From: Actinomycetota bacterium
GTDB taxonomy: Bacteria > Actinomycetota > Acidimicrobiia > Acidimicrobiales > JAMCPD01
Assembly: GCA_023379935.1 (NCBI GenBank)
Contig: JAMCPD010000017.1
Location: forward strand, 67,420 to 131,419
DNA length: 64,000 nt
Direction: 5' to 3'
Part shown: positions 17,026 to 53,815 of the stretch, piece by piece
Layout: every line of letters begins with the position of its first letter
How positions within the stretch are numbered: the stretch's first letter is position 1
Translations under genes and position numbers: made by a program
Notes under the pieces: model-generated
What the model was told of the DNA's origin: nothing
Database searches by the model: none
What the model saw: the letters and a program-made list of their open reading frames with translations, nothing else

Positions 17026-17040
17026 AAAATAAACCTCCTT

Positions 17041-20000
17041 TTAGCTATACCAACCGGTTACATCCACAACAACATTTACAGAACCTTGATACAGTCCTAT
17101 GCTTATCTTACCAGAAGCAGACAGTTTAACTGTAACAGAGTTTGCAACTGTTAGACCCGGCGAAAAGTTTAGGTTTGAAACTACTGGCTGAGCAGTACCT
17201 TCGGGCCAAACAGTTAGATAGGCATCAGCGGTTGGATTTACCGCTGTTACGTTCAGTACTACAGCTTTGGCATTAGAAGGAATAGGTCCCATACCGGCTA
17301 GACTAAGGGTAAGGAAGACAGAAGAGGAAAGCGGAGTGCTAGAACATCCGGTGGCATAACCAACTGATGATACTGTTCTTGTATCACATGCTCTATAAGG
17401 GGTAGTTCCAACAAAACTGATTCCGGTTGTCGAAGAAGAAAAGTATCCCATCACGTCAACAGCCACATCTGTAGTGCCACTAAAGTTATAGATTGAGATG
17501 TCACCGTTTTGTGGTAGCGGTACTATAACAACATTTGGGACGGTTTGATTTGGTGCAAAGTTCAGGTTTGACGCAGTTGGTTGGGTGGCACCCTCTGGCC
17601 AAACTGTCAGATAACCCGGTTCAGTAGGAGAAATAGCTGTTACGTTTAGTACTGCGGCCACAGCAGTTGTCGGAACTCCTCCTGAAGTCGGACAAGTTGA
17701 TAGGCTGCATGGATTTGTTCCCCCAACCTCTACATTTAATATTTTACTTGGACCCAAGGTTTTCCCTTCACATTGGCTCAAGTCGTAACCGGACAGCTTA
17801 GATGGATTATTGCTTCTTGTGTCACATACTCTGTATGGAGTAATCGGGGAAAAGACAGTTCCGCCGGAGGCCGGCCCGTAGTATCCCTCAACGTCAACCA
17901 CAACATCTGATGAAGCGTAAGAGTATATGGAGATACATCCCGTACAGGAGGTGGTAGTGCCGAGTGCAACCTCTGTCAGATTTGGAACGGTTTGTCCGGA
18001 TGTGTAGTTGAGTGAAGAAGCAGTCGGTTTAACTTCTCCAGCAGGCCAAACAGTAAGATAGCCCGGCCCGGTCGGATCCACTGCCGTTATGTTCAGCACA
18101 ACAGAAGTAGCATTGGACGGCACATATGACTCTCCTGAACCAAGATATGGGCTTTTATAACCCGAAACTTGTATTTGCATGGTTTGTCCGCCACCAAGCG
18201 GAGACGGACCGTTTACATTACACTGATTCTTCAGTATTGAGCTTCCCTGAGGTGTTCTTGTATCACATATTCGATAGGGAACAAGGGGATAGTAGTTTGT
18301 GCCGACTTGAGGCGTAGAAGAAAGATAGGTATATGCCGTCCAGTCAGAGGTTGCACCTGAAACAGTAACACTGACATCTACCGTATCGGGCAAGGTTGCT
18401 CCGCTTGGAGCAGGCGGCACGATAGCGGTGCAGGAGGAAGTAGTAGAACAAGAAACAGACGTTGCGGGAGTAGATCCAAACAAAACGGTTGTACTGCCAG
18501 GGGCGGTTGAAAAGTTCGTACCGGCTAGGGTTACGGTATTACCACCTGAGGCAGGTCCTTGAGAAGGCGAGATAGAGGTTAAGGTTGGTGGCGGTAATAA
18601 AACAGTTGAATAAAGGGTCAGGCCGACATTGTCGGCACCAAGTGTAAAACACTCGCTAACAGTTTGGACGCATGTTGTGTCAGTGCTGTCTACAGGTTCG
18701 AGATAGTTGACAGCTAGTGGCTGCCAGAATGGGGCATCTAATGTTAAGCTGTTCTGTATTGTACAAGCCCCAACTGATAAACACATAATTTTACCTGTTG
18801 AGTTAACTCCTCCGGTAGGCTGATTTGTCCAGGAAGTGCCGTTCCAGAAAAGTACACCTCCGCTGGAACCACTATATGTCCCTGGGGTAGCAAAACAGTA
18901 AGAAGATGAGATGCACAGCACATCATCTATTCCTTCGGGGTTCAAGGAGTCAAAGGAGGAAGGCAGAGTATCGGTTGTCCATCCTGAACCATTGTAAGAA
19001 AGTATAACAGGAGTTGTAGATGTCCCTGCTTTACAGAAGGTAGTCGATACGCACGATATAGTGGAGATGGGGGATATTCCCGAACTAAGGGTTTGTGTAG
19101 TCCATGCAGTACCGTTCCAAGATAACGCAATGGCGGAGGAAGAGGGGCTCCCTCCCACAGCTTCACAGAAGGTTTGAGACACACATGAGATTGCCTCAAG
19201 CGGTGCCACTGTGGATGGGAGAGTCTCGATTGTCCAATTTTTGCCGTTCCAGGACAGAGCAATACCATTAGTTTGAGTTTGTGTAACAGTGCCAATTGCT
19301 GTAACAGTGGTGGTGTAATAAGATCCCACAGCTTCACAGAAGGTCTGAGACACGCATGTAAGCGCATCAATTTCATAAGGTCCTGAGTTAGATGAGGGGA
19401 AAAGGGTTTGATTTGTCCAGGAAGTGCCGTTCCAGGACACAGAGGCTTCGACAATACCAAGAGGGGTATCGCCCGTCCCCAACGCCAGACAAAAGCTTGA
19501 AGAAACACAGGAGATTCTATAAGAACCGCTTATGGCAAAGGGAGGAGTCACACTTGACCAAGCGGTACCGTTGTAAGGGAATATAGCAGCGGTAACATCT
19601 CCGCTGTTTGGAACCGTTATAGCACCTGAAGCCAGGCATGATGAGACAGAAGCGCACCATATGCCACTGAGTGTCCATGTATTGGCTGGGATAGTCTCTG
19701 TGCTCCAGGTTGTACCATTCCAGAAATCCGCATTAGCTCCCACAGCTTGGCAATATGACTCCGAGCTGCACCAAATACTGTTTGTACCCAAAAAACCGGA
19801 GGGAAGAGTTTCATTCGACCAGCTCGTACCGTTATACAGGTATGAAAGAGGACCATTCGGATTGCTGGTTCCATTGTGATAGGAGCCGACAGCCTGGCAG
19901 AAGGTTGGGGAGGTGCATGAAATTGACCTGATAATACTTCCCGTTTCAACAAAAGGTATAGCTTCGGATGCCCAGTTAGTGCCGTTATATCCATATGCAA

Positions 20001-23000
20001 TAACAGTGGTTTGAGTATTACCACCCAACGCCTGGCAAAAGGATGTGGAGGTACATGAGATTGTGCTAAGTTGCCCCTCTATGTCGGGGCTGATGGAAAG
20101 GGTTGTTTCGACTGTCCAAGCGGTACCGTTGTACAAAAGGATAATGTCGTTGGTGGAACTGGAACCGACAGCTTGGCAATAAGTGGAAGATACGCACGCC
20201 ACAGCATAAAGGCCCGTTATTCCCGAAGGTAGGGTTTCATTTGTCCAGGTGGTACCGGTTCCGTTCCAAGAAAAAGCGATTCCAGTCGAAGCTCCAGTCA
20301 AGGTTGTGACGTAGCCCACTACTTGACAAAATCCGTTTGATGAGCCGGTTGGAGGTATACATGAAATTCCCCGGAGACTGCTGTTTGTTGGAATGCCGTC
20401 AATACCGATATCATTGATCCACGTAGATCCTCCGTTGGTTGTTTGGAAAACGGTTGTATCATTGTGTGGCCCATTGCTGGCTACACCAAAACATATGCCG
20501 GTCGTTGCACATGAAATACCCGTAAAGAGATAAGATTGGGAAGGATATCTTGTTGGAGGGAACGAAGACCAGTTGATTGTTGGATTATAGCTGTAACTTA
20601 TAACATTTGAAGTACCAGAGGAAGTCCTTACTGTGACCGGCAGTGTTCCTCCTAAACCGGGCCCGCTTGGTGAAACAACGCTGCAGGTAGTTGTTGATGA
20701 ACAAAAGACATCTGTTGCCGGCTTTGGACCAAAATACACGCTGGTTGAGCCTGTTGCAGTTGAAAAATTGTTACCGGATATCGTTACCAAAGTGCCTCCG
20801 CGCACTGATCCTGTATTTGGATTAATTGCACCAACCAAAGGGGTTAAAGCAGTGACAGAGAGTGCATAAAGCCCCGCGTAGGAGTTTGTGATACCCGATG
20901 TTTCACAAACAGCGCTTAGAGTACTGGATGATATACATGACAGGGCATCAGAAACGCTGGTTACCGAGGAGGGGAAACTTACCTTAGACCAAGTTGAACC
21001 GTTGAGAGAAAGTGAGATGGGGCTGTTGCCGGAGTTATTATTTCCAATTGCCTCACAAAAACCGGGGCCGGTACACGACACCTCATCAAGGCCGCTAATA
21101 TTTACCGGTAGGGCTTGGGGATACCAAGCATTTTCTGATTCGTCGTACTCCGCAGCGCTGTTATTACCAACCAACTCACAAAAAGTTTGTGCCTCAGGCG
21201 ATAGTATACATGACACAGCATTAGCACCGGTGGGCGTATTATTGTCCAAGGTCCAGCTTGAACCGTTCCAAGACAAGACAACACTCGCAGAAGGACTCGC
21301 AGAAGGAGCATACCCGACTGCCATACAAAAGCTTGAAGATGTACATGATACGCTGTTTAGGGTGGCATTGGCTCCCAAAGAACTAAGGGTTTGTGCAGTC
21401 CACACAGTTCCGTTGTAGGAAAAAGCGATAGGGTTACTTGAACTGTATCCTACTGCCTCACAAAAGGTTGTCGTCACACACGATACACTTGTGAGTTGGT
21501 CATTGGCTCCCAAAGAACTAAGGGTTTGTGCAGTCCACACAGTTCCGTTGTAGGAAAAAGCGATAGGGTTACTTGAACTGTATCCTACTGCCTCACAAAA
21601 GGTTGTCGTCACACACGATATCCCAAAAAGATTGGAAGCGGGCGAAGGGAGAGTCTGTTCGGACCATGTAGATCCGTTCCAGGACAAGCCAACACCGACA
21701 GTGGCATTAGAGACGACAGCTGATCCTACTGCCTCACAAAAGGTTGTCGTCACACACGATATGCCATTAGGGGCATTTATCGTTGATGAAGGCAAAGCCA
21801 GTGTAGTCCAACCTGAACCGTTATATAAAAATGCATTAGGGGGGTAGGTGGTTCCTCCTGAATTACCGCCTGAATTAGACGTTCCCAATGCCACACAAAA
21901 GCTTTGAGATATACACGATATGCTGTTGAGGCTGGAATTATAGGGTGAGTTGGGGAAAGAGACAGTCTGTTCAGTATCCCATGTTCCACTATAAGGTAGT
22001 CCAATTGCGGAGTTGGAGCTATAACCGCCCGGAGCATAGCTAAACGATGATCCCCCCGCTTCGCAAAAGCTTACAGAGGTACAAGAAATAGTAGAGTAAA
22101 GAGGTACCGTATTTGATGAATATGAGATTGGAGTGTCGCTGCCGCTCCATGAGGAACCGTTATAAGATAAGATAGTCCCGTCAATAAAAGGCTGAGTGTT
22201 TAAACTGATATTACCTACCGCCATGCAGAAAGTTTCAGAAGCACATGACAACCCCTCAATCTCGCCGTTAGTTGCTTGTTGGGAGGGTAAGCTTTGCGAA
22301 CTCCATGTGCCACCGTTATAAATGGCGGCAATAGCGGTGGAGGTGGTGTTGATAGTACCTCCTGCCACACAAAATTCACTTGATGTTCCAATACATGAAA
22401 CGCTTAACAGTTCAGACTCGGATGAGGTATCGGATGATGGTAATGTTGATGTACTCCATGTGCTGCCGTTGTAAACAGCACCAGCAGCTATGTTAGTGGC
22501 TAAGGAAGAGGAAAAGGTATCTCCGACTGCCATACAAAAGCTTGAAGATGTACATGATATGGCAAAAGGGGACGTTATTGTAGATGGCATGTTTTGAAGT
22601 ATCCATGCAGAGCCGTTATAGGTCAAAGAAACGCCGACATTAGTTGTTCCGTTATAGGAGTACCCCACAGCTTCGCAAAAGCTAGCCGACACACACGATA
22701 TGGCATCCAGCGACCCAACTGAGGAGGGAATTGAGGCTGTATCGTTTGACCATGTTGATCCTCCGTTAGCTGTTTCATAGAGTCCGGCCCCGGTGGGGGG
22801 GTTTCCAGCAGCGTTTAATGGGGTTTTCCCAACAGCAAAGCAAATCTCTGAGCTTATACAACTTATAGATTCAAGTGATGATGCCAAAAACGGGTATTCA
22901 GTTTGGACAGACCACTGTGGAGTGGCGTGAGTATGAATACTGCCCAAAAGGCTGGTTGCATATCCAGGTACAGGTGTAAATACACTGAGTAATGCTGTTA

Positions 23001-23046
23001 GACTGACAACCAAAAAAAGGTGGTAGAAGTTGGGTTTTGTTATCAT
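17041..23046 (-). CDS. 2001-aa secreted mosaic protein: 14 Cys-pair blades, IPT, 14 blades, IPT, 3 PYRxCDTR domains
   Basis: ATG with no SD (see promoter feature) and a signal peptide ending PVPGYA. I counted 14 + 14 blades by hand, of the type ISCVSASFCEAVG...YNGSxW. There are two IPT/TIG domains (GGTLVTISGNNF, GGNTVTLAGTNF). The C-terminus holds three ~140-aa domains starting PYRICDTR, PYRVCDTR and PYRACDTR. Confidence 0.85.
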   Translation of the reverse strand: MITKPNFYHLFLVVSLTALLSVFTPVPGYATSLLGSIHTHATPQWSVQTEYPFLASSLESISCISSEICFAVGKTPLNAAGNPPTGAGLYETANGGSTWSNDTASIPSSVGSLDAISCVSASFCEAVGYSYNGTTNVGVSLTYNGSAWILQNMPSTITSPFAISCTSSSFCMAVGDTFSSSLATNIAAGAVYNGSTWSTSTLPSSDTSSESELLSVSCIGTSSEFCVAGGTINTTSTAIAAIYNGGTWSSQSLPSQQATNGEIEGLSCASETFCMAVGNISLNTQPFIDGTILSYNGSSWSGSDTPISYSSNTVPLYSTISCTSVSFCEAGGSSFSYAPGGYSSNSAIGLPYSGTWDTEQTVSFPNSPYNSSLNSISCISQSFCVALGTSNSGGNSGGTTYPPNAFLYNGSGWTTLALPSSTINAPNGISCVTTTFCEAVGSAVVSNATVGVGLSWNGSTWSEQTLPSPASNLFGISCVTTTFCEAVGYSSSNPIAFSYNGTVWTAQTLSSLGANDQLTSVSCVTTTFCEAVGYSSSNPIAFSYNGTVWTAQTLSSLGANATLNSVSCTSSSFCMAVGYAPSASPSASVVLSWNGSSWTLDNNTPTGANAVSCILSPEAQTFCELVGNNSAAEYDESENAWYPQALPVNISGLDEVSCTGPGFCEAIGNNNSGNSPISLSLNGSTWSKVSFPSSVTSVSDALSCISSSTLSAVCETSGITNSYAGLYALSVTALTPLVGAINPNTGSVRGGTLVTISGNNFSTATGSTSVYFGPKPATDVFCSSTTTCSVVSPSGPGLGGTLPVTVRTSSGTSNVISYSYNPTINWSSFPPTRYPSQSYLFTGISCATTGICFGVASNGPHNDTTVFQTTNGGSTWINDIGIDGIPTNSSLRGISCIPPTGSSNGFCQVVGYVTTLTGASTGIAFSWNGTGTTWTNETLPSGITGLYAVACVSSTYCQAVGSSSTNDIILLYNGTAWTVETTLSISPDIEGQLSTISCTSTSFCQALGGNTQTTVIAYGYNGTNWASEAIPFVETGSIIRSISCTSPTFCQAVGSYHNGTSNPNGPLSYLYNGTSWSNETLPSGFLGTNSIWCSSESYCQAVGANADFWNGTTWSTETIPANTWTLSGIWCASVSSCLASGAITVPNSGDVTAAIFPYNGTAWSSVTPPFAISGSYRISCVSSSFCLALGTGDTPLGIVEASVSWNGTSWTNQTLFPSSNSGPYEIDALTCVSQTFCEAVGSYYTTTVTAIGTVTQTQTNGIALSWNGKNWTIETLPSTVAPLEAISCVSQTFCEAVGGSPSSSAIALSWNGTAWTTQTLSSGISPISTISCVSTTFCKAGTSTTPVILSYNGSGWTTDTLPSSFDSLNPEGIDDVLCISSSYCFATPGTYSGSSGGVLFWNGTSWTNQPTGGVNSTGKIMCLSVGACTIQNSLTLDAPFWQPLAVNYLEPVDSTDTTCVQTVSECFTLGADNVGLTLYSTVLLPPPTLTSISPSQGPASGGNTVTLAGTNFSTAPGSTTVLFGSTPATSVSCSTTSSCTAIVPPAPSGATLPDTVDVSVTVSGATSDWTAYTYLSSTPQVGTNYYPLVPYRICDTRTPQGSSILKNQCNVNGPSPLGGGQTMQIQVSGYKSPYLGSGESYVPSNATSVVLNITAVDPTGPGYLTVWPAGEVKPTASSLNYTSGQTVPNLTEVALGTTTSCTGCISIYSYASSDVVVDVEGYYGPASGGTVFSPITPYRVCDTRSNNPSKLSGYDLSQCEGKTLGPSKILNVEVGGTNPCSLSTCPTSGGVPTTAVAAVLNVTAISPTEPGYLTVWPEGATQPTASNLNFAPNQTVPNVVIVPLPQNGDISIYNFSGTTDVAVDVMGYFSSSTTGISFVGTTPYRACDTRTVSSVGYATGCSSTPLSSSVFLTLSLAGMGPIPSNAKAVVLNVTAVNPTADAYLTVWPEGTAQPVVSNLNFSPGLTVANSVTVKLSASGKISIGLYQGSVNVVVDVTGWYS
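21366..21620 (-). repeat. 135-bp tandem duplication with a 120-bp perfectly identical core
   Basis: 21366-21485 is identical to 21501-21620. Each copy encodes one blade (VTTTFCEAVGYSSSNPIAFSYNGTVWTAQTLSSLGAN). Confidence 0.9.
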
Positions 23047-28437: not shown

Positions 28438-28537
28438 AGGTCTCATCAAGAGCGACTGAGGGACGGGCCCGATGATGTCGCGGCAACCTGCTAAGTGCCG
28501 TATATAGCAAGGTGCCAATGCCTGATCGATGAGGAGA
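28438..28537 (+). promoter_or_regulatory. SAM-I (S-box) riboswitch
   Basis: The sequence CTCATCAAGAGCGACTGAGGGACGGGCCCGATGATGTCGCGGCAACC...GGTGCCAATGCCTGATCGATGAG matches the S-box core. P1 pairs CTCATC (28442-28447) with GATGAG (28528-28533). The 3' strand of P1 overlaps the SD GAGGAG (28531-28536), 6 nt before GTG 28543. No terminator follows, so control is probably translational. Confidence 0.85.
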
Positions 28538-28542
28538 ATTGA

Positions 28543-29802
28543 GTGAATTTTATTGAAGAAAATTTCAACAAGGAAGTATATTACACAGGACTGCGTTGCA
28601 GGGAGTGTTCCAGAACTTATCCCGCCGAGGCACTTTATTTTTGCGATTTTTGCTTTGGGCCGCTAGAGGTGGTTTATGACTATGAAGCTATAGCAGGCAA
28701 GGTTACGAAGCAGTCCATAGCAGCAGGTCCGCAGAGTATGTGGCGATATAGGGACCTATTACCAGTCGCAAGCGGGTCACTTATAGATCTTGGAGCAGGC
28801 TTTACTCCGTTGGTTAAGGCGGATCGTCTTGGAGCGGAGCTTGGGCTGAAACAGCTTTGGATTAAAGACGATACCGTCAACCCCAGCGGCTCTTTCAAAG
28901 ACAGGGTGGTCTCAGTATCTCTCACCAAGGCTCGCGAACTTGGCTTTAAAGTGGTTGCGTGTGCTTCCACGGGCAACCTGGCTAACTCGGTTGCCGCTCA
29001 TGCCGCACGCGCCGGCATGGAGTGTTATATTTTCATTCCTAATGATTTAGAAGAAGCTAAGGTAGTTACTACTGCAGTTTATGGGGCTAACTTGATAGCT
29101 GTGGAGGGGACTTATGATGATGTAAATCGTTTATGTGCAGAGTTGACCAGTGAGCGTCCATCGTGGGCATTTGTCAATGTAAATATTCGACCATACTATG
29201 CGGAAGGATCTAAAACTTTAGCTTTTGAAGTGGCTGAACAGTTGGGCTGGCGCCTCCCTGACCATGTTGTGGTCCCAATAGCATCCGGTAGCCAGCTAAC
29301 CAAGATACATAAAGGGTTTGAAGAACTTGTCAATGTCAAACTTGTAGAACCTCATCCGGTTAGAATTTCAGGAGCACAGGCCGTGGGATGTGCTCCTGTC
29401 GCGAATGCGTTTAGTGATCAATCTGATTATATACATCCGGTCAAACCTTCCACTATTGCCAAGTCTTTGGCAATAGGCAATCCTGCTGATGGAATATATG
29501 CACTTGATGTAGTCCGTAAAAGTGGTGGATCGTGTCTTGCGGTAACCGATACCGAGATTGTGGAAGGTATACGTTTGCTTGCCGCCACAACGGGAATTTT
29601 TGCGGAAACAGCAGGTGGTGTTACAATAGCAACACTTGATAAACTTGTGTCGCAGGGAGTTGTGAGACCTGAGGAAAATGTCGTGGTTATGGTGACTGGC
29701 AACGGGCTAAAGACTATAGAGGCGCTAGCACCGTATGTGGGACCTACCTTCAATATTCCACCAACGCTGGAAGCTTTTGAAGCCGCTGTTACGGAAGGTT
29801 AG
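28543..29802 (+). CDS. threonine-synthase-family PLP enzyme with N-terminal Zn ribbon (MetM-like candidate)
   Basis: Cys4 ribbon CRECS...CDFC, PLP lysine motif NPSGSFKDR, and a Gly-rich loop. It sits behind a SAM riboswitch and upstream of a MoaD-like gene. Confidence 0.8.
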   Translation: MNFIEENFNKEVYYTGLRCRECSRTYPAEALYFCDFCFGPLEVVYDYEAIAGKVTKQSIAAGPQSMWRYRDLLPVASGSLIDLGAGFTPLVKADRLGAELGLKQLWIKDDTVNPSGSFKDRVVSVSLTKARELGFKVVACASTGNLANSVAAHAARAGMECYIFIPNDLEEAKVVTTAVYGANLIAVEGTYDDVNRLCAELTSERPSWAFVNVNIRPYYAEGSKTLAFEVAEQLGWRLPDHVVVPIASGSQLTKIHKGFEELVNVKLVEPHPVRISGAQAVGCAPVANAFSDQSDYIHPVKPSTIAKSLAIGNPADGIYALDVVRKSGGSCLAVTDTEIVEGIRLLAATTGIFAETAGGVTIATLDKLVSQGVVRPEENVVVMVTGNGLKTIEALAPYVGPTFNIPPTLEAFEAAVTEG

Positions 29803-29910
29803 CGTGCATAGCTGCCAACTTACAAGCCCAGCGTTGTTTTGAAAGCAGGCAGTTGTTATATTGCCGGTTAAGATTTGAGGGAGTTGTTAGGATTTGATAG
29901 GATCAATTTT

Positions 29911-30228
29911 ATGGCTGTAACAGTACGTATACCAACTCAACTTCGTACCCTCACTCAAGGTGTAGGTGAGGTTTCAGTTGAAGGCGATACCGTGGGAGCA
30001 GCACTCCGGGCGTTGGAAGCGTCTTATCCGGGTTTTGCGGAAAGAATATTGGACGAAGAGGGTTCACTCAGACGGTTTGTCAACGTTTTTGTTGCCGATG
30101 AAGACGTTAGATTTTTACAAGGATTGGATACTGTTTTAACACAAGGGCAGATTGTCTCTATACTACCTGCAGTTGCCGGTGGAGATTGTACAACTTCGAC
30201 TCCGTTTATCAAGGATACGGAATTTTAA
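29911..30228 (+). CDS. MoaD/ThiS-family sulfur-carrier protein with C-terminal extension after Gly-Gly
   Basis: MAVTVRIPTQLRTLTQG...ILPAVAGG followed by DCTTSTPFIKDTEF. I prefer the ATG at 29911 to the TTG at 29875 because MoaD-family proteins normally begin at this beta strand. Confidence 0.75.
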   Translation: MAVTVRIPTQLRTLTQGVGEVSVEGDTVGAALRALEASYPGFAERILDEEGSLRRFVNVFVADEDVRFLQGLDTVLTQGQIVSILPAVAGGDCTTSTPFIKDTEF

Positions 30229-32901: not shown

Positions 32902-34617
<1,716 letters not shown>

Positions 34618-36132: not shown

Positions 36133-36378
36133 TCAACTCTCAACCATGTCGCCAAGTAAGTCAACACTTATGCCAAGCTCCCTAAGCCACTTTAGTGATT
36201 CCTCTATCGCATCCGTGGTGCCGGAAAGTTCACAAATAATCCACCCCTCCGTGCCTTCTACGCTGGCGCGGCGGATATTTGGGACTACATTATGTTCCTT
36301 AACCAGGCGCGCTATTATCGGTTCACGAATTAGTTTTTCTGGAAAAATAAGTTTTACTCTCAACACTACTGATGTCAT
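36133..36378 (-). CDS. stand-alone NIL-domain protein
   Basis: 81 aa resembling the C-terminal NIL domain of MetN (EPIIARLVKEHNVVPNIRRASVEG...GWIICELSG). Its start overlaps the upstream stop (ATGA). Confidence 0.7.
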   Translation of the reverse strand: MTSVVLRVKLIFPEKLIREPIIARLVKEHNVVPNIRRASVEGTEGWIICELSGTTDAIEESLKWLRELGISVDLLGDMVES

Positions 36379-37217
36379 ATTTTTTTATTCCTATATCCCT
36401 GCAAGTCTAACATGACACGACTATACCCCGCCGCTTTTACTGCTTTTACTATTTTATCCCGTTCCTTTAGGACTTTTGGCAAGTCAGAGACTTCAAATTC
36501 AATACATGCCAACGAGTCATAATGGCGCACTCTAAGCTGCTCAAAGCCGAGTTGTCTAACGGCGTACTCTGCTTTTTCCACAGTTCGCAAGGTTTTAATG
36601 TTTATCGGTGTTCCATGAGGAATTCTGGAAGCCAAACAAGCATTCTGTGGTTTGTTCCACGTAGGCAATCCCAGTGAGCGCGACAAGGAACGTATTTTTG
36701 CTTTATCAAATCCGGCTTGCACAAAGGGGAACACTGCACCGTTGAGTTGCGCAGCTTTTTGACCCGGCCTTACGTCGTTCAAGTCATCAAGATTGACACC
36801 CAGTACCACCGTTGCTTTACCGGCTTCGTCCGAGGTTACCTTGTCGTAGGATGCAAAGGAGGGTGTCAGATTGGATATAACTGACATTAGCTCTGTTTTA
36901 CACCAGTAGCAGCGTGAGACAGTATTTTGAATATAAAGTGGATTATCGAGCTCGTGTGTTACAACAGTTGCCCACTGTAGATTCCACTGAGCAGCCAAGT
37001 TTTTGCAAAAGGTGGCGTCTTGAGTGGTCAGAGTGGGAGACACGGCTGTTACACACAGTGTATTGTCCTTGCCCAACACGTTGTTGGCTGACCAAGCCAG
37101 CAAGGAAGAGTCTGCTCCGCCGCTAAAGGCAACTATGACTCGTTGTAAGCTGTTCAACACTTCGGCCAGAGCATGCCAAGCGGTTTGCAAATCTTTATCT
37201 AATGTCTGATAGTTCAT
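36375..37217 (-). CDS. PP-loop ATP pyrophosphatase, LarE-like (TIGR00268-type) sulfur transferase
   Basis: PP-loop AFSGGADSSLL and the conserved Cys motif NACLASRIPHG, with a length of 280 aa. Confidence 0.7.
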   Translation of the reverse strand: MNYQTLDKDLQTAWHALAEVLNSLQRVIVAFSGGADSSLLAWSANNVLGKDNTLCVTAVSPTLTTQDATFCKNLAAQWNLQWATVVTHELDNPLYIQNTVSRCYWCKTELMSVISNLTPSFASYDKVTSDEAGKATVVLGVNLDDLNDVRPGQKAAQLNGAVFPFVQAGFDKAKIRSLSRSLGLPTWNKPQNACLASRIPHGTPINIKTLRTVEKAEYAVRQLGFEQLRVRHYDSLACIEFEVSDLPKVLKERDKIVKAVKAAGYSRVMLDLQGYRNKKI

Positions 37218-37896
37218 TGATTTCAGCTACTATGCCCATGTAAAAAGGGCCAAAGTGTGCATACTCAGCCGACGCTTCATCAAAGCGCATTTCATATATA
37301 ATGGCTTTTAAATCATCCGGACATTGCGCGAAAAGGGTGACTCCCCATTCGTAATCATCCAATCCAAAAGACCCGGTAACCAGCTGAACGACTTTACCGG
37401 CGTACTTTCGCCCTGTGGCACCATGTGCAAGCATAAGCTCCTTTCGTTTTTCAAACGATAAGGTATACCAGTTTTGTCCAACTTTACGCCTTTTTGACAT
37501 CGGATAGAAGCAGAATGCCCGCATTCCTTCCGGGGGAAGAACAGGATATAAGCGCGCATTTTTGATTTGATCGGGCAAGCCCGGGGCATATTCTGAGGTT
37601 TCTGTCAATGAAACATACGAGCAGGACAACTCAAGTTCCGATGCCTTTAACGCATTTTGAAAACTTTTCAAATGCCAAAAGTTTTTAGCAATGGCCATAA
37701 AGCCGATATCGGCTTTATGCCCCAACAAGGCAACGGTAACTATCTGAACGTCATTTTCGCGAGCTTCTTTTATCGCGGTATCGACAGTTTGGATGTCAAA
37801 GTTCTTATTGACTTTGCAAAACAGGTGGACAACCCCCAAACCTGTCGAAGGGGCCAACTCCTTCTTGGCAGTTATGGGGTTATAAGAAGAGTTCAT
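37195..37896 (-). CDS. hemQ: coproheme decarboxylase / chlorite-dismutase-family HemQ
   Basis: The pattern GLGVVHLFCKV...YVSLTETSEY...FYPMSKRR...NWY...R..LM..H matches the chlorite dismutase family. I chose the start at ATG 37896, which forms an ATGA overlap with the upstream small ORF, over the ORF-track start at 37929. Confidence 0.8.
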   Translation of the reverse strand: MNSSYNPITAKKELAPSTGLGVVHLFCKVNKNFDIQTVDTAIKEARENDVQIVTVALLGHKADIGFMAIAKNFWHLKSFQNALKASELELSCSYVSLTETSEYAPGLPDQIKNARLYPVLPPEGMRAFCFYPMSKRRKVGQNWYTLSFEKRKELMLAHGATGRKYAGKVVQLVTGSFGLDDYEWGVTLFAQCPDDLKAIIYEMRFDEASAEYAHFGPFYMGIVAEINELSDIR

Positions 37897-38084
37897 TTGG
37901 GCGGATCTTGCTGTTTTCGTATATGCCAACCTATTTTTGAAGTTTTTCTAGGTTCATAAAATAAGCAGTTTTCAGGACAGGCAAATGGGAGTATTTGCCC
38001 AGCGTTTAGTTTGCAACGTTCCAGTTTCTCGTTGGTTTTTGTGCTTTGCATTACATAGTGGTGGCAGTCCGGCTTTACAGACAT
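37893..38084 (-). CDS. 63-aa Cys4 miniprotein, translationally coupled to hemQ
   Basis: It has four Cys (C7, C24, C35, C39; ...FACPENCLFYEPR). Its stop overlaps the hemQ ATG. I cannot assign a family. Confidence 0.45.
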   Translation of the reverse strand: MSVKPDCHHYVMQSTKTNEKLERCKLNAGQILPFACPENCLFYEPRKTSKIGWHIRKQQDPPK

Positions 38085-38239
38085 AACTATATTTTGACAG
38101 AAAATGGTTGTTTATGCCAACCGGGGATTCTCAACAGTTTGATATGGCAGTATGTGGTAGAATAGTGAAGTACAACGGTCCAGCTAAAATGGTTCTCAGC
38201 TAAGAATATAAATGGAGTATTCATTAAGGAGCAAATTCA

Positions 38240-38998
38240 GTGGTGCCCAGTCACAGTGATAGCACAGACGATAATCACTACAACCTGGTATCTCAACAAG
38301 ATCTATGTCGATGGGGAGAAAGCTTGGCTGGGGTTGCACGTACCGGGCTTGGTTTTACCAAAAGTTTATATGAACGTGAACGGTTTGAGGAGATTATAAA
38401 AATAGCTGCAGAAATTAAGGCGTCTTCGAGGGCAGCGGGTGAGATGAGGGACAGTACAAACAATGTTGATAACAAAGTTAATGCGCCAGATGCCAAAGCA
38501 TTTGCGCAAGAGTGGATTGACGATATTCAAGATGGGGTGAGTGGCTATGTAACACCAAAGGTCGCCATAGGCGCTGTCGTTGGCAACGAACACCAAGAGA
38601 TGCTTTTGATAAAAAGAGCCGATTCGGGTATATGGCTTTATCCGACAGGATGGGCGGATATTGGGTATTCGCCGGCTGAGGTAGTCATCAAGGAAGTCAA
38701 GGAGGAAACCGGGATAGATGTTAAGCCTGTTCGTCTTATAGCGGTGTTTGATGGACTACGTCTGGGAATTACAAGAATGCCGTTCTACTCTTTGATATTC
38801 CAATGTAAATTACTGGGCGGAGACTTAAAGCCTCATCCCCTGGAATGTCAAGATGTAGGCTGGTTCTCCAGGGATAAACTGCCAATGCCGTTAGGCAGAG
38901 CTGAGACATGGACTAAACACTTTTTTGCCGCCATTGCAGGCGAGCCGGTAGAGGTTATGTTTGATGAGCCGCGGGACCCGGTTTGGAAAAATACCTAG
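38240..38998 (+). CDS. NUDIX hydrolase with N-terminal NUDIX-associated domain
   Basis: Nudix box GWADIGYSPAEVVIKEVKEETG, with a GTG start 8 nt after AAGGAG. An extended -10 candidate TGGTAGAAT lies at 38155-38163. Confidence 0.8.
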   Translation: MVPSHSDSTDDNHYNLVSQQDLCRWGESLAGVARTGLGFTKSLYERERFEEIIKIAAEIKASSRAAGEMRDSTNNVDNKVNAPDAKAFAQEWIDDIQDGVSGYVTPKVAIGAVVGNEHQEMLLIKRADSGIWLYPTGWADIGYSPAEVVIKEVKEETGIDVKPVRLIAVFDGLRLGITRMPFYSLIFQCKLLGGDLKPHPLECQDVGWFSRDKLPMPLGRAETWTKHFFAAIAGEPVEVMFDEPRDPVWKNT

Positions 38999-41439: not shown

Positions 41440-41511
41440 GCCGGCGTGGCGCAGTGGTAGCGCAGGCGATTTGTAATCGTCAGGTCGTGGGTTCAATCCC
41501 CTCCGCCGGCT
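41440..41511 (+). tRNA. tRNA-Thr (anticodon UGU)
   Basis: Folded by hand. The acceptor stem is GCCGGCG/CGCCGGC, the D stem GCGC/GCGC, and the anticodon stem GGCGA/TCGTC with loop TTTGTAA. The T loop is TTCAATC, with one U-U mismatch in the T stem. CCA is not encoded. Confidence 0.85.
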
Positions 41512-41533
41512 CAAGAATTATGTAGATTATTTT

Positions 41534-51133: not shown

Positions 51134-52009
51134 ATGATTGAAGTTGATGATAGCACCAGCGTTGATGGCGCCGGCATGTCTGCAGCATCGAGAGGTGCTG
51201 ATACCCCTTCATTTTCACTTCCTCCTGACGCTATAAAACGTCTTGGCGAACTTGAAGGCAAGGAGGGGAAAGGTGGGCTGTTTACCAGTGATCTGTCGGT
51301 TAATGAGTTTTTGCTTGTCAAGGAGGTTGGGTTTCACCCCAGGGGGCTCGTACTGGGCAGTTCTATCTATCATATTGGACTCCAAGGCCGCAGTTGGACA
51401 AGCAACCAGGAACTCAGTTCACTTACCCAGGCTATGTACACAGCCAGAGAGTTGGCTATGTCCAGAATGGAAGCTGAGGCTGACGTACTGGGTTCAGATG
51501 GTGTCGTAGGTGTACGCTTGGATATCAACTTCTACGATTGGGGACAGCACTCTGCTGAATTTATAGCTATTGGTACAGCTGTGTCCGCACAAGATGGGAA
51601 AAGTTGGAGAACTCCCGAGGGCAAACCGTTTACCAGCGACTTGAGCGGCCAGGATTTTTGGACACTCCTGCACTCCGGATATATGCCGCTTGGCCTTGTC
51701 ATGGGAACTTGTGTTTATCATGTAGCTCACCAAGGTCTTGGTAAAAAAATTGGTCAGATTGGGCGTAACACTGAAATGGAAAACTTTACTCAAGCTCTGT
51801 ATGAGGCCCGTGAACTGGCTATGGAGCGTATGCAAGAAGAAGCAACCAGAGTTGGAGCCGAAGGTATAGTGGGGGTGCAGTTGGTAGAAAAATCACACTT
51901 TTGGGGTAGTCACGTAATTGAGTTTTTGGCTATTGGCACTGCTGTTCGGCCCATTAAAGTCGACCACGTAATTGAGCCGCCACAGATGGTTCTTTCTTTA
52001 GATACATGA
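51134..52009 (+). CDS. double YbjQ (UPF0145/DUF74) domain protein, paralog 1
   Basis: Two YbjQ-like halves. Each runs S/TSDLS...GY.PLGLVMG..(I/V)YH...Y.AREL.A..RM..EA...G(A/S)(D/E)G(I/V)VGV.L......EF.AIGTAV. AAAGGAG lies before the ATG. Confidence 0.75.
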   Translation: MIEVDDSTSVDGAGMSAASRGADTPSFSLPPDAIKRLGELEGKEGKGGLFTSDLSVNEFLLVKEVGFHPRGLVLGSSIYHIGLQGRSWTSNQELSSLTQAMYTARELAMSRMEAEADVLGSDGVVGVRLDINFYDWGQHSAEFIAIGTAVSAQDGKSWRTPEGKPFTSDLSGQDFWTLLHSGYMPLGLVMGTCVYHVAHQGLGKKIGQIGRNTEMENFTQALYEARELAMERMQEEATRVGAEGIVGVQLVEKSHFWGSHVIEFLAIGTAVRPIKVDHVIEPPQMVLSLDT

Positions 52010-53034
52010 TGAACTCTCCTAAGAAGCCTGAAGATATCACCGGGGCCGGACCGGTTGGTGCCGGATCGACTGGCAATGAGATTGACGACGTCGGTGATTT
52101 ACCTGAAGCTGCTCGTAGCCGAATTAGGGAAACAGAGGAACATGGAGGTGCGTGGAGCAGTGATTTATCGGTAGATGAGGCTCTGGCTATCTCAACTGCC
52201 GGCTATAAGCCCCTAGGTTTGGTGATGGGTAGCTCTATTTATCACATAGGATTTGGTGGAACTGGTGCTTTTTCAACTGGTGGAGGGTTGCTGAGTGCGG
52301 GAGGTGCCTTCGGTCCGGGATATTCTGGCGCATTGGGTACTTCTTCAAGAAGAATTGGTACAAACGGTTACTACCAGATGTATCCCTGCCCTCACGGTTA
52401 TACCATGGTTGCAGGAGATCACTATGCCGGTGTTAACTGGGAGAATACTATTTTTGAAGAGGGGATGACCAAAGCACGCAACTTGGCTATAGGGCGACTT
52501 GTCGAGGAAGCAAAAGGGCTTGGGGCGCATGGCGTTGTGGGAGTGGAGCTTACTTTGCGCCCTTTTGCCGATACGAATTCGGTCTTGGAGTTTACTGCCT
52601 TTGGTACTGCGATATATAGTCTGGGTGCGCCAGCGGTATCCACCCCATTTACTTCCAACCTATCGGGACAAAGTTTTGAAAAGTTGCTGTTGACCGGCTA
52701 TATGCCGGTGGCTCTTGTTATGGGGGTAGCTGCAATTGAAGCTGATGCCGGGTGTGCAACCGACTACCGGCTTGGGTCATGGGTTAACAACGAGGTGAGC
52801 CAATACACCGATGCGGTGCAGTTATGTCGAGAGATGGCAGTGGAGCGTTTAGAGTCTGAGGCGGCGCAATTTGGTGATGGGGTGGTTGGTACATGGGTAG
52901 ATTTTAACCTGCATGAGATAGGGGAACGTTCCAAGTTAATTGAGATGACTGTTTTGGGTACTGCTGTCAAACGGTTTAGCGATACCCGCCTTGCTTCTCC
53001 CCCTCTGCCCATCATGAGGTTGGTTGATAAATGA
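52006..53034 (+). CDS. double YbjQ domain protein, paralog 2 (Gly-rich insertion in first domain)
   Basis: The start overlaps paralog 1's stop (ATGA). It has the same two-domain pattern, with an insertion of about 60 aa (GFGGTGAFSTGGGLLSAGGAFGPGYSG...). Confidence 0.75.
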   Translation: MMNSPKKPEDITGAGPVGAGSTGNEIDDVGDLPEAARSRIRETEEHGGAWSSDLSVDEALAISTAGYKPLGLVMGSSIYHIGFGGTGAFSTGGGLLSAGGAFGPGYSGALGTSSRRIGTNGYYQMYPCPHGYTMVAGDHYAGVNWENTIFEEGMTKARNLAIGRLVEEAKGLGAHGVVGVELTLRPFADTNSVLEFTAFGTAIYSLGAPAVSTPFTSNLSGQSFEKLLLTGYMPVALVMGVAAIEADAGCATDYRLGSWVNNEVSQYTDAVQLCREMAVERLESEAAQFGDGVVGTWVDFNLHEIGERSKLIEMTVLGTAVKRFSDTRLASPPLPIMRLVDK

Positions 53035-53047
53035 GTTTGGAGGATAG

Positions 53048-53815
53048 GTGAAACGAGTTTTTTCATCTGACTTAAGCATAGATGAGGCAATACTGTTAGC
53101 TGATACCGACTATGAGCCTTGCGGGCTTGCTACCGGAAGTTCGATATTTCACATAGGTATGATCCCCTCTTGGGGACTTGGTCAAAATATGGAGATCAAA
53201 GAGCTTTCCTCTGCTATGTATGAAGCCAGACGACTTGCTATGGGACGCTTAGTTTCTACTGCCAATAAGGTGGGTGGGCAAGGAGTGGTGGGAGTAACAC
53301 TTGATATTAATATGTTTGAAGGGCATAATCATCTGGCTGTGTTCAATGCAATGGGAACAGCAGTTAGAAAGATAGGGGGTGGTGAAAGTTCAGGGCATAA
53401 GCACCAACCCAGCTGTTTTACCAGCGACCTGAGCGGCCAGGACTTTTATCTGTTGCTGCGCGCGGGCTACCTTCCGCTTGGTATGGTAATGGGGACGTGT
53501 GTATATTACGTGGCAAGACAGCAGATGGCCACCTGGATGCGTTCTCAAACGCAAAATATCGAAATTGCTACATATACCTCTGCTTTGTATGATGCAAGGG
53601 AACTGGCAATGGGCAGAATGCAGCAAGAAGCCTTACGGCTTGGAGCAGATGGCATAGTTGGCGTAAAGGTTACCGAGCAGTCGCATGTGTGGGGGAGCCA
53701 TGTTATTGAGTTTTTTGTGCTGGGGACAGCGGTGCGTTTAACCGGCAAAGAGCATCGTAAGCTGGAGCCTCGTTCTGTGTTGCCCTTAGATGATTTCCCA
53801 GCGGTGGTTTTTTAG
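53048..53815 (+). CDS. double YbjQ domain protein, paralog 3
   Basis: GTG start 13 nt after the previous stop, behind GGAGGATAG. It shows the same two-domain pattern (FSSDLSIDE..., FTSDLSGQDFYLLLRAGYLPLGMVMG). Confidence 0.75.
   Translation: MKRVFSSDLSIDEAILLADTDYEPCGLATGSSIFHIGMIPSWGLGQNMEIKELSSAMYEARRLAMGRLVSTANKVGGQGVVGVTLDINMFEGHNHLAVFNAMGTAVRKIGGGESSGHKHQPSCFTSDLSGQDFYLLLRAGYLPLGMVMGTCVYYVARQQMATWMRSQTQNIEIATYTSALYDARELAMGRMQQEALRLGADGIVGVKVTEQSHVWGSHVIEFFVLGTAVRLTGKEHRKLEPRSVLPLDDFPAVVF

Follow-up and report, generated by a model that had tools for sequence, protein, structure and literature searches.

Four open reading frames (ORFs) follow one another on the minus strand of the window, as we call the whole 64-kb stretch of DNA analyzed here, and encode a miniprotein with four cysteines, HemQ, LarE and a NIL-domain protein (Table 1). 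All three junctions between these ORFs overlap. Does such tight packing mean that the four products work together, as the initial annotation had proposed for heme maturation and sulfur transfer? The explanation that we favor, with moderate confidence, is that the locus, from an Acidimicrobiia-like actinobacterium, is a housekeeping operon of convenience, that it contains an undescribed LarE-NIL pair, and that the four products probably act in separate processes.

Table 1. Positions of the four genes and of neighboring features in the window
Feature	Position	Strand	Remarks
Miniprotein	37893..38084	-	63 aa; Cys at 7, 24, 36, 40
HemQ (ChdC)	37195..37896	-	233 aa from ATG 37896; stop TAA 37197-37195
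LarE	36375..37217	-	280 aa; ATG 37217; stop TGA 36377-36375
NIL-domain protein	36133..36378	-	81 aa, stand-alone; ATG 36378-36376
Intergenic region miniprotein/Nudix	38085..38239		Likely divergent promoter site of the four-gene transcript
Nudix hydrolase	38240..38998	+	Pfam Nudix_N + NUDIX; divergent neighbor of the miniprotein gene; context, not a shown operon member
GroEL	32962..34617	+	Marks both syntenic block and inversion; in relatives, conserved upstream neighbor of the HemQ-LarE-NIL triad

Junctions and predicted transcription of the four genes

The ATG of HemQ (37896-37894) overlaps the TGA of the miniprotein gene (37895-37893) as ATGA, HemQ and LarE share 23 nt (37195-37217), and the TGA of LarE (36377-36375) overlaps the ATG of the NIL gene (36378-36376), again as ATGA. 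On re-check, these overlaps were exactly as the initial annotation had described them, and its gene identities were also right: PF06778 for HemQ, TIGR00268 with the motifs SGGADSS and ACLASR for LarE, and PF09383 for the NIL protein, besides a Cys4 protein of 63 aa. A sequence scan found no terminator-like site after any junction of the four genes. Overlapping stops and starts combined with junctions of this kind are the features expected of a translationally coupled operon. Transcription of all four cistrons into a single mRNA probably begins between the miniprotein and Nudix genes, and the overlaps would allow translational coupling along this mRNA. On the minus strand, a sigma-70-like site (TTGGCA-18-CAAAAT, 38120..38091) is a consensus match only, with 5 such sites found versus 3.6 expected. 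It ends 6 nt before ATG 38084, a spacing that would fit a leaderless mRNA.

The miniprotein gene is conserved but lies on the opposite strand in relatives

The public annotation of the contig (locus L001) lacks the small gene; NCBI calls there a 244-aa HemQ from position 37929. If this were correct, the small ORF would be no gene and hemQ would start at TTG 37929, leaving three coupled genes. The initial annotation had itself raised the possibility of an untranslated small ORF, mistaking the TTG at 37929 for an ATG. Compatible with this reading, a Shine-Dalgarno-like sequence was not obvious ahead of either start. However, a search of 5.8 billion proteins gave homologues of the 63-aa protein, P0121-P0123, with E-values of 1e-20 to 1e-21, and tblastn and HMM searches matched it in 14 other loci representing 13 lineages. 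The alignment contains 16 invariant columns that include C7, C24, C36, and C40 (spacing C-x16-C-x11-C-x3-C), the genomes concerned span 45% to 71% G+C, and other assemblies annotate the homologues as a gene of 68-71 aa. In addition, the N-termini of HemQ homologues line up with ATG 37896, not with TTG 37929, and another gene caller picked the 233-aa form of HemQ (L002, L003). These observations make an untranslated small ORF highly improbable. Judged by its conservation, the miniprotein gene is real, and the public hemQ start probably lies 33 nt too far upstream.

The miniprotein family had no match in Pfam (E up to 10), NCBIfam, or, by profile search, the PDB, and an AlphaFold2 model was unusable (pLDDT 44). 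The product is probably a small metal-binding protein.

In 14 of the 14 other loci (13 lineages), the miniprotein gene is on the strand opposite to the triad, converging on NIL and diverging from Nudix. With arrowheads for direction, relatives show GroEL> HemQ> LarE> NIL> <mini Nudix>, in loci of 45-71% G+C with about 50% protein identity, versus GroEL> <NIL <LarE <HemQ <mini Nudix> in the window. The Nudix gene adjoins the miniprotein gene divergently in L005, L008-L012, L016, L017, L025, and L026 and lies ~2 kb from it in L027. The triad is inverted only in the present genome, where a lineage-specific inversion has put the hemQ-larE-NIL segment behind the miniprotein gene; we looked for inverted repeats at the flanks of the inverted triad and found none. 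Hence, the set of four coupled genes that had been described is not conserved, and from its position in relatives the miniprotein looks like a neighbor of HemQ, LarE, and NIL rather than a partner.

HemQ carries the residues of a coproheme decarboxylase

HemQ matched PF06778 (Chlor_dismutase) at E = 1.4e-48 and 165.5 bits (cut-off, 25). It narrowly missed the equivalog cut-off of the firmicute-like model PRK12276 (222.5 versus 253 bits) and scored only 58.2 bits against HemQ_actino (cut-off, 235). Over the heme-binding half, it is ~50% identical to the coproheme decarboxylases (ChdC) of Geobacillus (1T0T) and Listeria (5LOQ). The motifs CFYPMSK, HG, and VQL are kept here and in 11 orthologues; we take them to contain Listeria Y147/M149/K151, H174, and Q187, respectively, a numbering that agrees with the alignment count. 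The protein thus has the catalytic Tyr, the proximal His, and, where true chlorite dismutases have Arg, the distal Gln. The Tyr of the motif RLYP was also considered as the catalytic residue and rejected, since it varies among orthologues and Tyr147 falls in the invariant CFYPM in the Listeria alignment. On the strength of these residues, HemQ is a coproheme decarboxylase ChdC of the firmicute-like type, which would turn coproheme into heme b using H2O2 by means of the conserved Tyr/His/Gln set. No other heme gene was found near it among the genes called in the window.

LarE is of the [4Fe-4S] type and resembles LarB-linked enzymes

LarE, a PP-loop ATP pyrophosphatase of the sulfur-insertase family, scored 266.4 bits against TIGR00268 (equivalog cut-off, 150) and matched the Lactiplantibacillus plantarum LarE structures at E = 1e-33. 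The PP-loop SGGADS (residues 32-37) is invariant in the LarE alignment, and the CXXC…C triad formed by C103 and C106 (CYWC) and C194 is invariant in 53 homologues. In Thermotoga LarE, CXXC…C binds a [4Fe-4S] cluster that is needed for catalytic sulfur transfer (PMC9283937). The motif ACLASR, which the initial annotation had presented as the LarE-type Cys motif, is indeed present; its Cys, however, aligns one residue after L. plantarum Cys176, the sacrificial residue, and is part of CXXC…C, and the Cys176 position is occupied by Ala193. The residues S197/R198 and R229/R231 correspond to L. plantarum S180/R181 and R212/R214, so that the substrate-phosphate-binding residues (L. plantarum Ser180, Arg212, and Arg214) are kept. 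As far as its residues tell, LarE here is of the catalytic [4Fe-4S] type and not of the sacrificial type. Since it has the cluster-binding Cys together with Ala at the Cys176 position, the NCBI name "sacrificial sulfur transferase" is probably wrong on mechanism. Sulfide bound at the free iron of the cluster would replace the activated group of the substrate, presumably toward the nickel-pincer nucleotide cofactor.

The nearest LarE relatives outside the clade of the present locus lie within canonical larB-larC or are fused to it, and the identity of LarE to LarE-LarB fusions is 41-49%, the value for P0131 being 49%. Among 73 columns conserved to at least 85% in LarB-linked LarE, the HemQ/NIL-linked group shares the conserved residue in 61; the remaining 12 are just more variable, none being swapped for another conserved residue, and the group-specific substitutions are mild only. 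From these comparisons, LarE looks canonical. An actinobacterial LarE clade (90% bootstrap) holds both LarB-linked and HemQ/NIL-linked members. Its LarB-linked members form their own group (92%) beside the HemQ/NIL-linked ones, whose monophyly has a bootstrap of 28%. Acidimicrobiia occur in both, and larE-larB-larC operons are found in Acidimicrobiia and other Actinomycetota. The window contained no larA, larB, or larC, and neither did the flanking 6-8 kb of the HemQ/NIL-linked LarE genes.

HemQ, LarE, and NIL belong to a larger syntenic block

We compared the neighborhoods of about 100 related loci, including ~27 HemQ/NIL-linked LarE loci and 61 more distant LarE loci. An Acidimicrobiia-like clade of Actinomycetota has HemQ, LarE, and NIL, in this order, as a conserved block. 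HemQ was directly upstream of LarE in 18 of the 26 evaluable clade loci, with a junction of -23 to +15 nt in most loci, and NIL was directly downstream of LarE in ~17 of 25 clade loci and in 2 more distant ones. Conservation of the neighborhood, which the initial annotation had named as the way to check its proposal, is thus borne out for HemQ-LarE-NIL.

The block extends beyond the triad. GroEL adjoins HemQ at a frequency similar to that of LarE, and a threonine-synthase-like/ThiS-like (MetM/MetO-like) pair is conserved in it nearly as well as HemQ. A SAM riboswitch (RF00162, 75.9 bits) precedes these threonine-synthase-like and MoaD/ThiS-like genes, 6-9 kb from the triad. Because GroEL and this pair are nearly as conserved as HemQ, synteny is no sign of shared function here. 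Several loci have LarE without HemQ or LarE without NIL. In the sister loci L021 and L027, the gene that overlaps the start of LarE is AlaX-like instead of HemQ, and in L030 and L033 HemQ is separated from LarE or lies on the other strand. Next to the more distant LarE genes, HemQ was found in 0 of 61 loci and LarB in ~10. Among the ten longest of 150 listed representatives, there were LarE-LarB fusions and no HemQ-LarE fusion. LarE seems to be without a promoter of its own and may ride on an upstream housekeeping gene, hemQ in most relatives and the alaX-like gene in some.

LarE and NIL form a conserved pair

The NIL protein matched PF09383 with 61.4 bits (threshold, 24; E = 7.6e-17) over profile positions 2-71 of 73. 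It is not a MetN, as it has no ABC ATPase domain and reached 20 bits against TIGR02314 (cut-off, 500). The firmest conserved feature of the locus is the NTGA overlap of the LarE stop with the NIL start, present in 19 of 21 related loci that span 45% to 71% G+C. NIL is absent from about a third of the clade loci and is therefore not essential to LarE, and it never accompanied the canonical larEBC operons observed, of which L095-L099 were scanned with a NIL HMM. The literature that we searched contained no joint mention of LarE and the NIL domain. This gene arrangement suggests that LarE and NIL are the conserved functional core of the locus, a previously undescribed pair and a possible working unit in which NIL is likely a partner or regulator of LarE. 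HemQ, by contrast, looks like a mere neighbor of the pair. Made together with LarE, NIL would most likely bind it, as an accessory, ligand-sensing, or sulfur-supply subunit.

Several other ideas about the pair were rejected. The protein P0168, a candidate LarE-NIL fusion, turned out to be a frameshifted gene call. The conserved C-terminus of NIL had suggested a ThiS-like carrier, but there is no Gly-Gly tail and the motif LGDVVE presumably forms, as it does in MetN, the final strand of the NIL fold. The single NIL Cys was considered as a conserved persulfide site; it is Leu in the more distant LarE-NIL pairs L032 and L037.

Operon of convenience, shared pathway, or new LarE function

Tight coupling of the genes could mean that ChdC, LarE, NIL, and perhaps the Cys4 protein cooperate in a heme-sulfur module, translational coupling setting their stoichiometry. 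The frequent position of HemQ directly upstream of LarE in the clade, the stops and starts that overlap or nearly touch in most such loci, and the persistence of this arrangement over a wide G+C range all point in that direction. However, the association is limited to one clade and vanishes among the more distant LarE loci, and the comparable attachment of GroEL to HemQ marks the block as plain synteny. An overlapping AlaX-like gene can stand in HemQ's place, the two genes come apart in other loci, and fusions of HemQ with LarE did not appear among the longest representatives. Moreover, ChdC keeps the full catalytic set of an ordinary enzyme and lies apart from other heme genes among those called in the window, and coupling to the miniprotein is found only in this genome. 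The joint function proposed in the initial annotation is therefore weak, in view of GroEL, the AlaX-like swaps, and the loci with LarE and no HemQ; a heme-sulfur pathway is not supported, and we consider it improbable. One point against the favored explanation is that many lineages retain the overlap of HemQ with LarE, which a model with HemQ as a bystander explains solely by inheritance.

HemQ would also be a bystander if LarE were a duplicate that left nickel-pincer synthesis and, with NIL, thiocarboxylates or thiolates another carboxylated metabolite. In favor of such a paralogue, larB and larC lie beside none of the ~27 HemQ/NIL-linked LarE loci, as opposed to LarB in some of the distant loci, and the larEBC operons observed were free of NIL. 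Since the LarB-linked LarEs are a group of their own and Acidimicrobiia occur in both groups, an ancient duplication after which one copy changed function would fit as well. One possibility within this reading is a connection with sulfur and methionine metabolism: many relatives keep the riboswitch-led MetM/MetO-like pair in synteny with the triad, and NIL domains, which the literature ties to methionine regulation, bind methionine both in MetN and in archaeal aspartate-semialdehyde sulfurtransferase. Against the duplicate, all strongly conserved residues of LarB-linked LarE are retained, the phosphate-binding ones known from L. plantarum LarE among them, the differences specific to the group are mild, and its monophyly is poorly resolved by bootstrap. 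The methionine link has its own difficulties, as the presence of NIL does not track adjacency to PALP/ThiS (ThiS without NIL in L023, L031, L033, and L038; NIL without PALP/ThiS in L005, L006, L021, and L027) and the published sulfur ligase of MetO is MoeZ. We regard a departure from nickel-pincer synthesis as rather unlikely. A bolder version is unlikely in our view: LarE-NIL would be a two-protein system that inserts sulfur without LarB and LarC into a substrate other than the nickel pincer, NIL would be a new ligand-sensing or sulfur-relay partner, and the persistent co-translation with ChdC could stem from a genuine connection with heme or sulfur/methionine metabolism. Returning to the operon of convenience, points that count against it are the absence of larA, larB, and larC from the 64-kb window and the 6-8 kb flanks, and Cys238, which in this LarE replaces a nearly invariant Arg of the family.

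Significance

If the LarE-NIL pairing is functional, it adds a partner protein to the [4Fe-4S] LarE class and gives stand-alone NIL proteins a concrete context. To our knowledge, heterologous IscS is the only sulfur donor demonstrated for a [4Fe-4S] LarE. Comparison with relatives corrected the annotation of the Cys4 miniprotein gene and, probably, that of the hemQ start and the "sacrificial" name of LarE. The locus also calls for caution, since tight overlap and clade-wide synteny alone are no indication of a shared pathway.

Comparison with known systems

HemQ shares the catalytic Tyr, Met, and Lys, the proximal His, and the distal Gln with the firmicute-type ChdC of Geobacillus and Listeria. 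It differs in being actinobacterial, yet poor on the actinobacterial model and just under the PRK12276 cut-off, and in not being clustered with other heme genes.

The closest known counterpart of LarE is the [4Fe-4S] enzyme of Thermotoga maritima, with which it shares SGGxDS, CXXC…C, the phosphate-holding Ser/Arg residues, length, and domain order. Unlike that enzyme, it is not beside larB/larC and sits between hemQ and an overlapping NIL gene; Cys238 is a further difference, and its activity is a prediction. The sacrificial LarE of L. plantarum (PDB 5UDQ) has the same fold family and ATP-binding motif, the match extending over the whole length, whereas LarE here has Ala at the Cys176 position and cluster-binding Cys instead.

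The Pfam domain of the NIL protein is also that of the C2 domain of MetN and of the NIL-ferredoxin subunit of the archaeal/Desulfovibrio aspartate-semialdehyde sulfurtransferase. As in the latter, NIL is associated here with a sulfur-inserting enzyme; in contrast to both, it is a stand-alone protein with neither an ABC nor a ferredoxin domain, and its partner would be a PP-loop enzyme. TtuA is a PP-loop enzyme with a three-Cys cluster that receives sulfur from TtuB, a small ThiS-like carrier with a Gly-Gly tail. The pairing of such an enzyme with a small partner protein resembles LarE-NIL, and by analogy LarE might receive sulfur from NIL, although NIL, unlike TtuB, is no ThiS-like carrier and has no Gly-Gly tail. 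The [4Fe-4S] LarE has itself been compared with TtuA (PMC9283937).

Identity of the four gene products

The initial annotation described four coupled genes on the minus strand, and our reading of ORFs and junctions returned all four ORFs and the three overlaps between them as described. Profile searches likewise confirmed HemQ, LarE, and NIL, each a member of a known family. Elsewhere in the window (G+C, ~46%), we observed two adjacent giant ORFs with Pro-kumamolisin activation, He_PIG, and TIG domains, whose products are probably large proteins that are secreted or displayed at the surface, three consecutive genes each encoding a YbjQ_1-domain product, and a tRNA-Thr gene whose reverse strand gives a spurious 57-aa ORF.

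Features of the window and of related loci (L0xx, L100)
Feature	Position	Strand	Basis or content
Miniprotein ORF, 63 aa	37893..38084	-	ORF reading
HemQ ORF, chlorite-dismutase family	end at 37195, ATG 37896	-	PF06778, E = 1.4e-48
LarE ORF, PP-loop, 280 aa	36375..37217	-	TIGR00268, 266 bits (cut-off, 150)
NIL ORF, 81 aa	36133..36378	-	PF09383, E = 7.6e-17
Miniprotein/HemQ junction	37893-37896	-	ATGA
HemQ/LarE junction	37195-37217	-	23-nt overlap
LarE/NIL junction	36375-36378	-	ATGA
LarE residue 238	36504-36506	-	Cys
Public hemQ extension	37896-37929	-	TTG 37929
Giant ORFs	10711-23046	-	2104 and 2001 aa
SAM riboswitch region	28440-30228	+	RF00162, 75.9 bits
Threonine-synthase-like gene	28543-29802	+	
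MoaD/ThiS-like gene	29911-30228	+	Gly-Gly, then 14-residue tail
ORF pair, 69 and 201 aa	35076-35887	+	4-nt overlap
tRNA-Thr	41440-41512	+	anticodon TGT
YbjQ_1-domain genes	51134-53815	+	three genes
AlaX-like gene overlapping LarE start	L021:4-681; L027:1666-2379		tRNA_SAD domain
IS4-family transposase	L012:7295-8515		
Partial LarE	L100:145-426		C-terminal 94 residues

HemQ is firmicute-like in profile searches (222 bits for PRK12276 versus 58 bits for the actinobacterial model) and shares ~50% identity with the structures from Geobacillus and Listeria. Counted on the Listeria alignment, the catalytic Tyr147, Met149, and Lys151 fall within CFYPMSK; HG contains the proximal His174, and VQL contains the distal Gln187. 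Because these residues are kept in the window protein and 11 orthologues, HemQ is, as far as sequence tells, an ordinary coproheme decarboxylase (ChdC). The contig's public (NCBI) annotation starts hemQ 33 nt upstream, at a TTG; the aligned N termini of homologues match the ATG instead, contrary to the upstream start considered initially.

The miniprotein gene is real but separately arranged

The public annotation also lacks the gene for the Cys4 miniprotein. A protein search found homologues at E = 1e-20, tblastn and HMMs matched it in 14 other loci from 13 lineages, and 16 columns of its alignment are invariant, all four Cys (C-x16-C-x11-C-x3-C) among them. This conservation argues for a real gene and makes it highly improbable that the ORF goes untranslated, a possibility raised in the initial annotation. 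The miniprotein had no match in Pfam, NCBIfam, or PDB, and its predicted structure was unusable.

In 14/14 other loci (13 lineages), NIL and the miniprotein gene face each other, and the miniprotein and Nudix genes point apart. Only in the window genome is the HemQ-LarE-NIL segment inverted, which places hemQ behind the miniprotein gene. We therefore interpret their ATGA junction as a recent, lineage-specific arrangement, and the coupling of four genes does not hold as a conserved unit. Between GroEL and the inverted segment lies a pair of ORFs without family match, absent from this position in relatives, that may have been inserted at the edge of the rearrangement. In L012, a transposase separates NIL from the miniprotein gene, the remaining order being intact.

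HemQ adjacency is confined to one clade

We collected ~100 loci by exact homologue look-ups, a genome scan, and a scan of metagenomes queried with an alignment of diverse LarEs, and screened them by tblastn and HMMs. LarEs at least 47% identical to that of the window form an Acidimicrobiia-like clade. The usual clade order was GroEL> HemQ> LarE> NIL> <mini Nudix>, with HemQ immediately preceding LarE in 18 of 26 evaluable loci and NIL immediately following it in ~17 of 25, whereas HemQ was found in none of 61 more distant LarE loci. Thus, the conserved neighborhood anticipated initially exists inside one clade but not beyond it. No clade locus had LarB or LarC within 6-8 kb of LarE, and the 64-kb window contains neither larB nor larC. 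LarB directly adjoined LarE in ~10 of the 61 distant loci, 5 of these also with LarC in the stretch covered; L082 has LarC beside LarE and no LarB match, and L085 has LarB and LarC ~1.3-2.6 kb upstream.

The tight coupling had initially suggested a heme-sulfur module in which HemQ and LarE/NIL act together, which we now consider quite unlikely. GroEL-HemQ adjacency is kept about as faithfully as HemQ-LarE adjacency, and threonine-synthase-like and ThiS-like genes are often kept in the block as well; GroEL-HemQ-LarE-NIL is a run of housekeeping genes held in synteny. In L021 and L027, the LarE start is overlapped by the end of a gene for an AlaX-like editing protein rather than by HemQ; L019, L024, and L029 have neither HemQ nor NIL beside LarE, and in L030 and L033 HemQ is displaced or on the other strand. 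The ten longest of 150 listed LarE representatives carry LarB (three), Nudix, RNase H-like, or zinc ribbon fusions, and none is fused to HemQ. Miniprotein-hemQ coupling, too, is confined to the window genome, the 14 other loci showing the opposite arrangement. The joint function is thus not supported, and the apparent tie to heme is probably a chance product of gene order.

The threonine-synthase-like gene of the window directly follows a SAM riboswitch and precedes the ThiS-like gene; this set resembles the MetM/MetO route, which reaches homocysteine by way of a thiocarboxylate and is often misannotated as threonine synthase. In many relatives, the pair is syntenic with GroEL-HemQ-LarE. Among representative proteins, LarE is fused to a MutT-like Nudix domain in P0188 and to LarB in P0131, P0133, and P0199; the Nudix gene that is conserved beside the LarE-NIL locus belongs to a different subfamily from that in P0188.

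LarE and NIL form the conserved pair

In 19 of 21 loci, from genomes of 45% to 71% G+C, the stop codon of LarE shares bases with the NIL start codon (ATGA, GTGA, or TTGA), and the pair persists without HemQ in L021, L027, L032, and L037. We infer that the two are cotranslated, and the pair is the conserved part of the locus. Since NIL is absent from a subgroup (L023, L029-L031, L033, and L038) even by HMM search, it is an accessory of LarE, not a requirement. In L032 and L037 its sole Cys is a Leu, which speaks against NIL as a persulfide carrier. In the library of papers searched, none names LarE and the NIL domain together; the undescribed element is this conserved pair, with overlapping genes, away from larB/larC.

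As to substrate, we compared 73 columns that are at least 85% conserved in 14 LarB-linked or LarB-fused LarEs with those of 24 HemQ/NIL-linked LarEs. The same residue was conserved in 61 columns, the other 12 were only more variable, and none held a different conserved residue. These retained columns, which include residues holding the substrate phosphate in the Lactiplantibacillus plantarum (Lp) structure, the mild group-specific differences, a LarE-LarB fusion 49% identical to the window LarE in an Actinomycetota genome (P0131), and canonical larE-larB-larC operons in Acidimicrobiia and relatives count for a nickel-pincer role. Against it, or leaving it open, stand the absence of larB/larC from the window, Cys238 in place of a family near-invariant Arg (Lp Arg221), and the separate LarB-linked group. 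In a bootstrapped neighbor-joining tree, actinobacterial LarEs form one clade (90%), in which the LarB-linked group (92%) lies beside the HemQ/NIL-linked group with weak support (28%), a pattern compatible with an ancient duplication as well as with the relocation, in some lineages, of a single larE. The window LarE has a long branch and other unusual residues (N188, H201, and N277). That an orphan LarE-NIL system acts on a new substrate is conceivable but doubtful. On one Acidimicrobiales contig (L100), a partial LarE upstream of larB-larC represents either a gene in decay or an artifact of assembly.

Proposed mechanism and comparison with known systems

We lean towards a reading with one transcript, ChdC making heme b, LarE serving the nickel-pincer cofactor with NIL as partner, and the miniprotein acting elsewhere. 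The transcript would be driven from the 155 nt between the miniprotein and Nudix genes, where a candidate promoter, TTGGCA-18-CAAAAT (a consensus match only), ends 6 nt before ATG 38084, and the overlapping stops and starts would pass ribosomes from cistron to cistron. ChdC would convert coproheme to heme b. LarE would adenylate a carboxylate, most probably of the nickel-pincer precursor, and sulfide from the free iron of its cluster would replace the activated group. NIL, made in step with LarE, would probably bind it as a subunit that senses a ligand or supplies sulfur. For the miniprotein, metal binding is probable.

In MetN and archaeal aspartate-semialdehyde sulfurtransferase, the NIL domain is known from the literature as a regulatory module that binds methionine. 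The window LarE has SGGADS plus C103, C106, and C194, the last of which falls one alignment position beyond the sacrificial Cys176 of Lp LarE. In Thermotoga LarE, a CXXC…C signature binds a [4Fe-4S] cluster, and the enzyme is catalytic, with sulfur from cysteine desulfurase (PMC9283937); the window LarE carries the same signature in its three cysteines.
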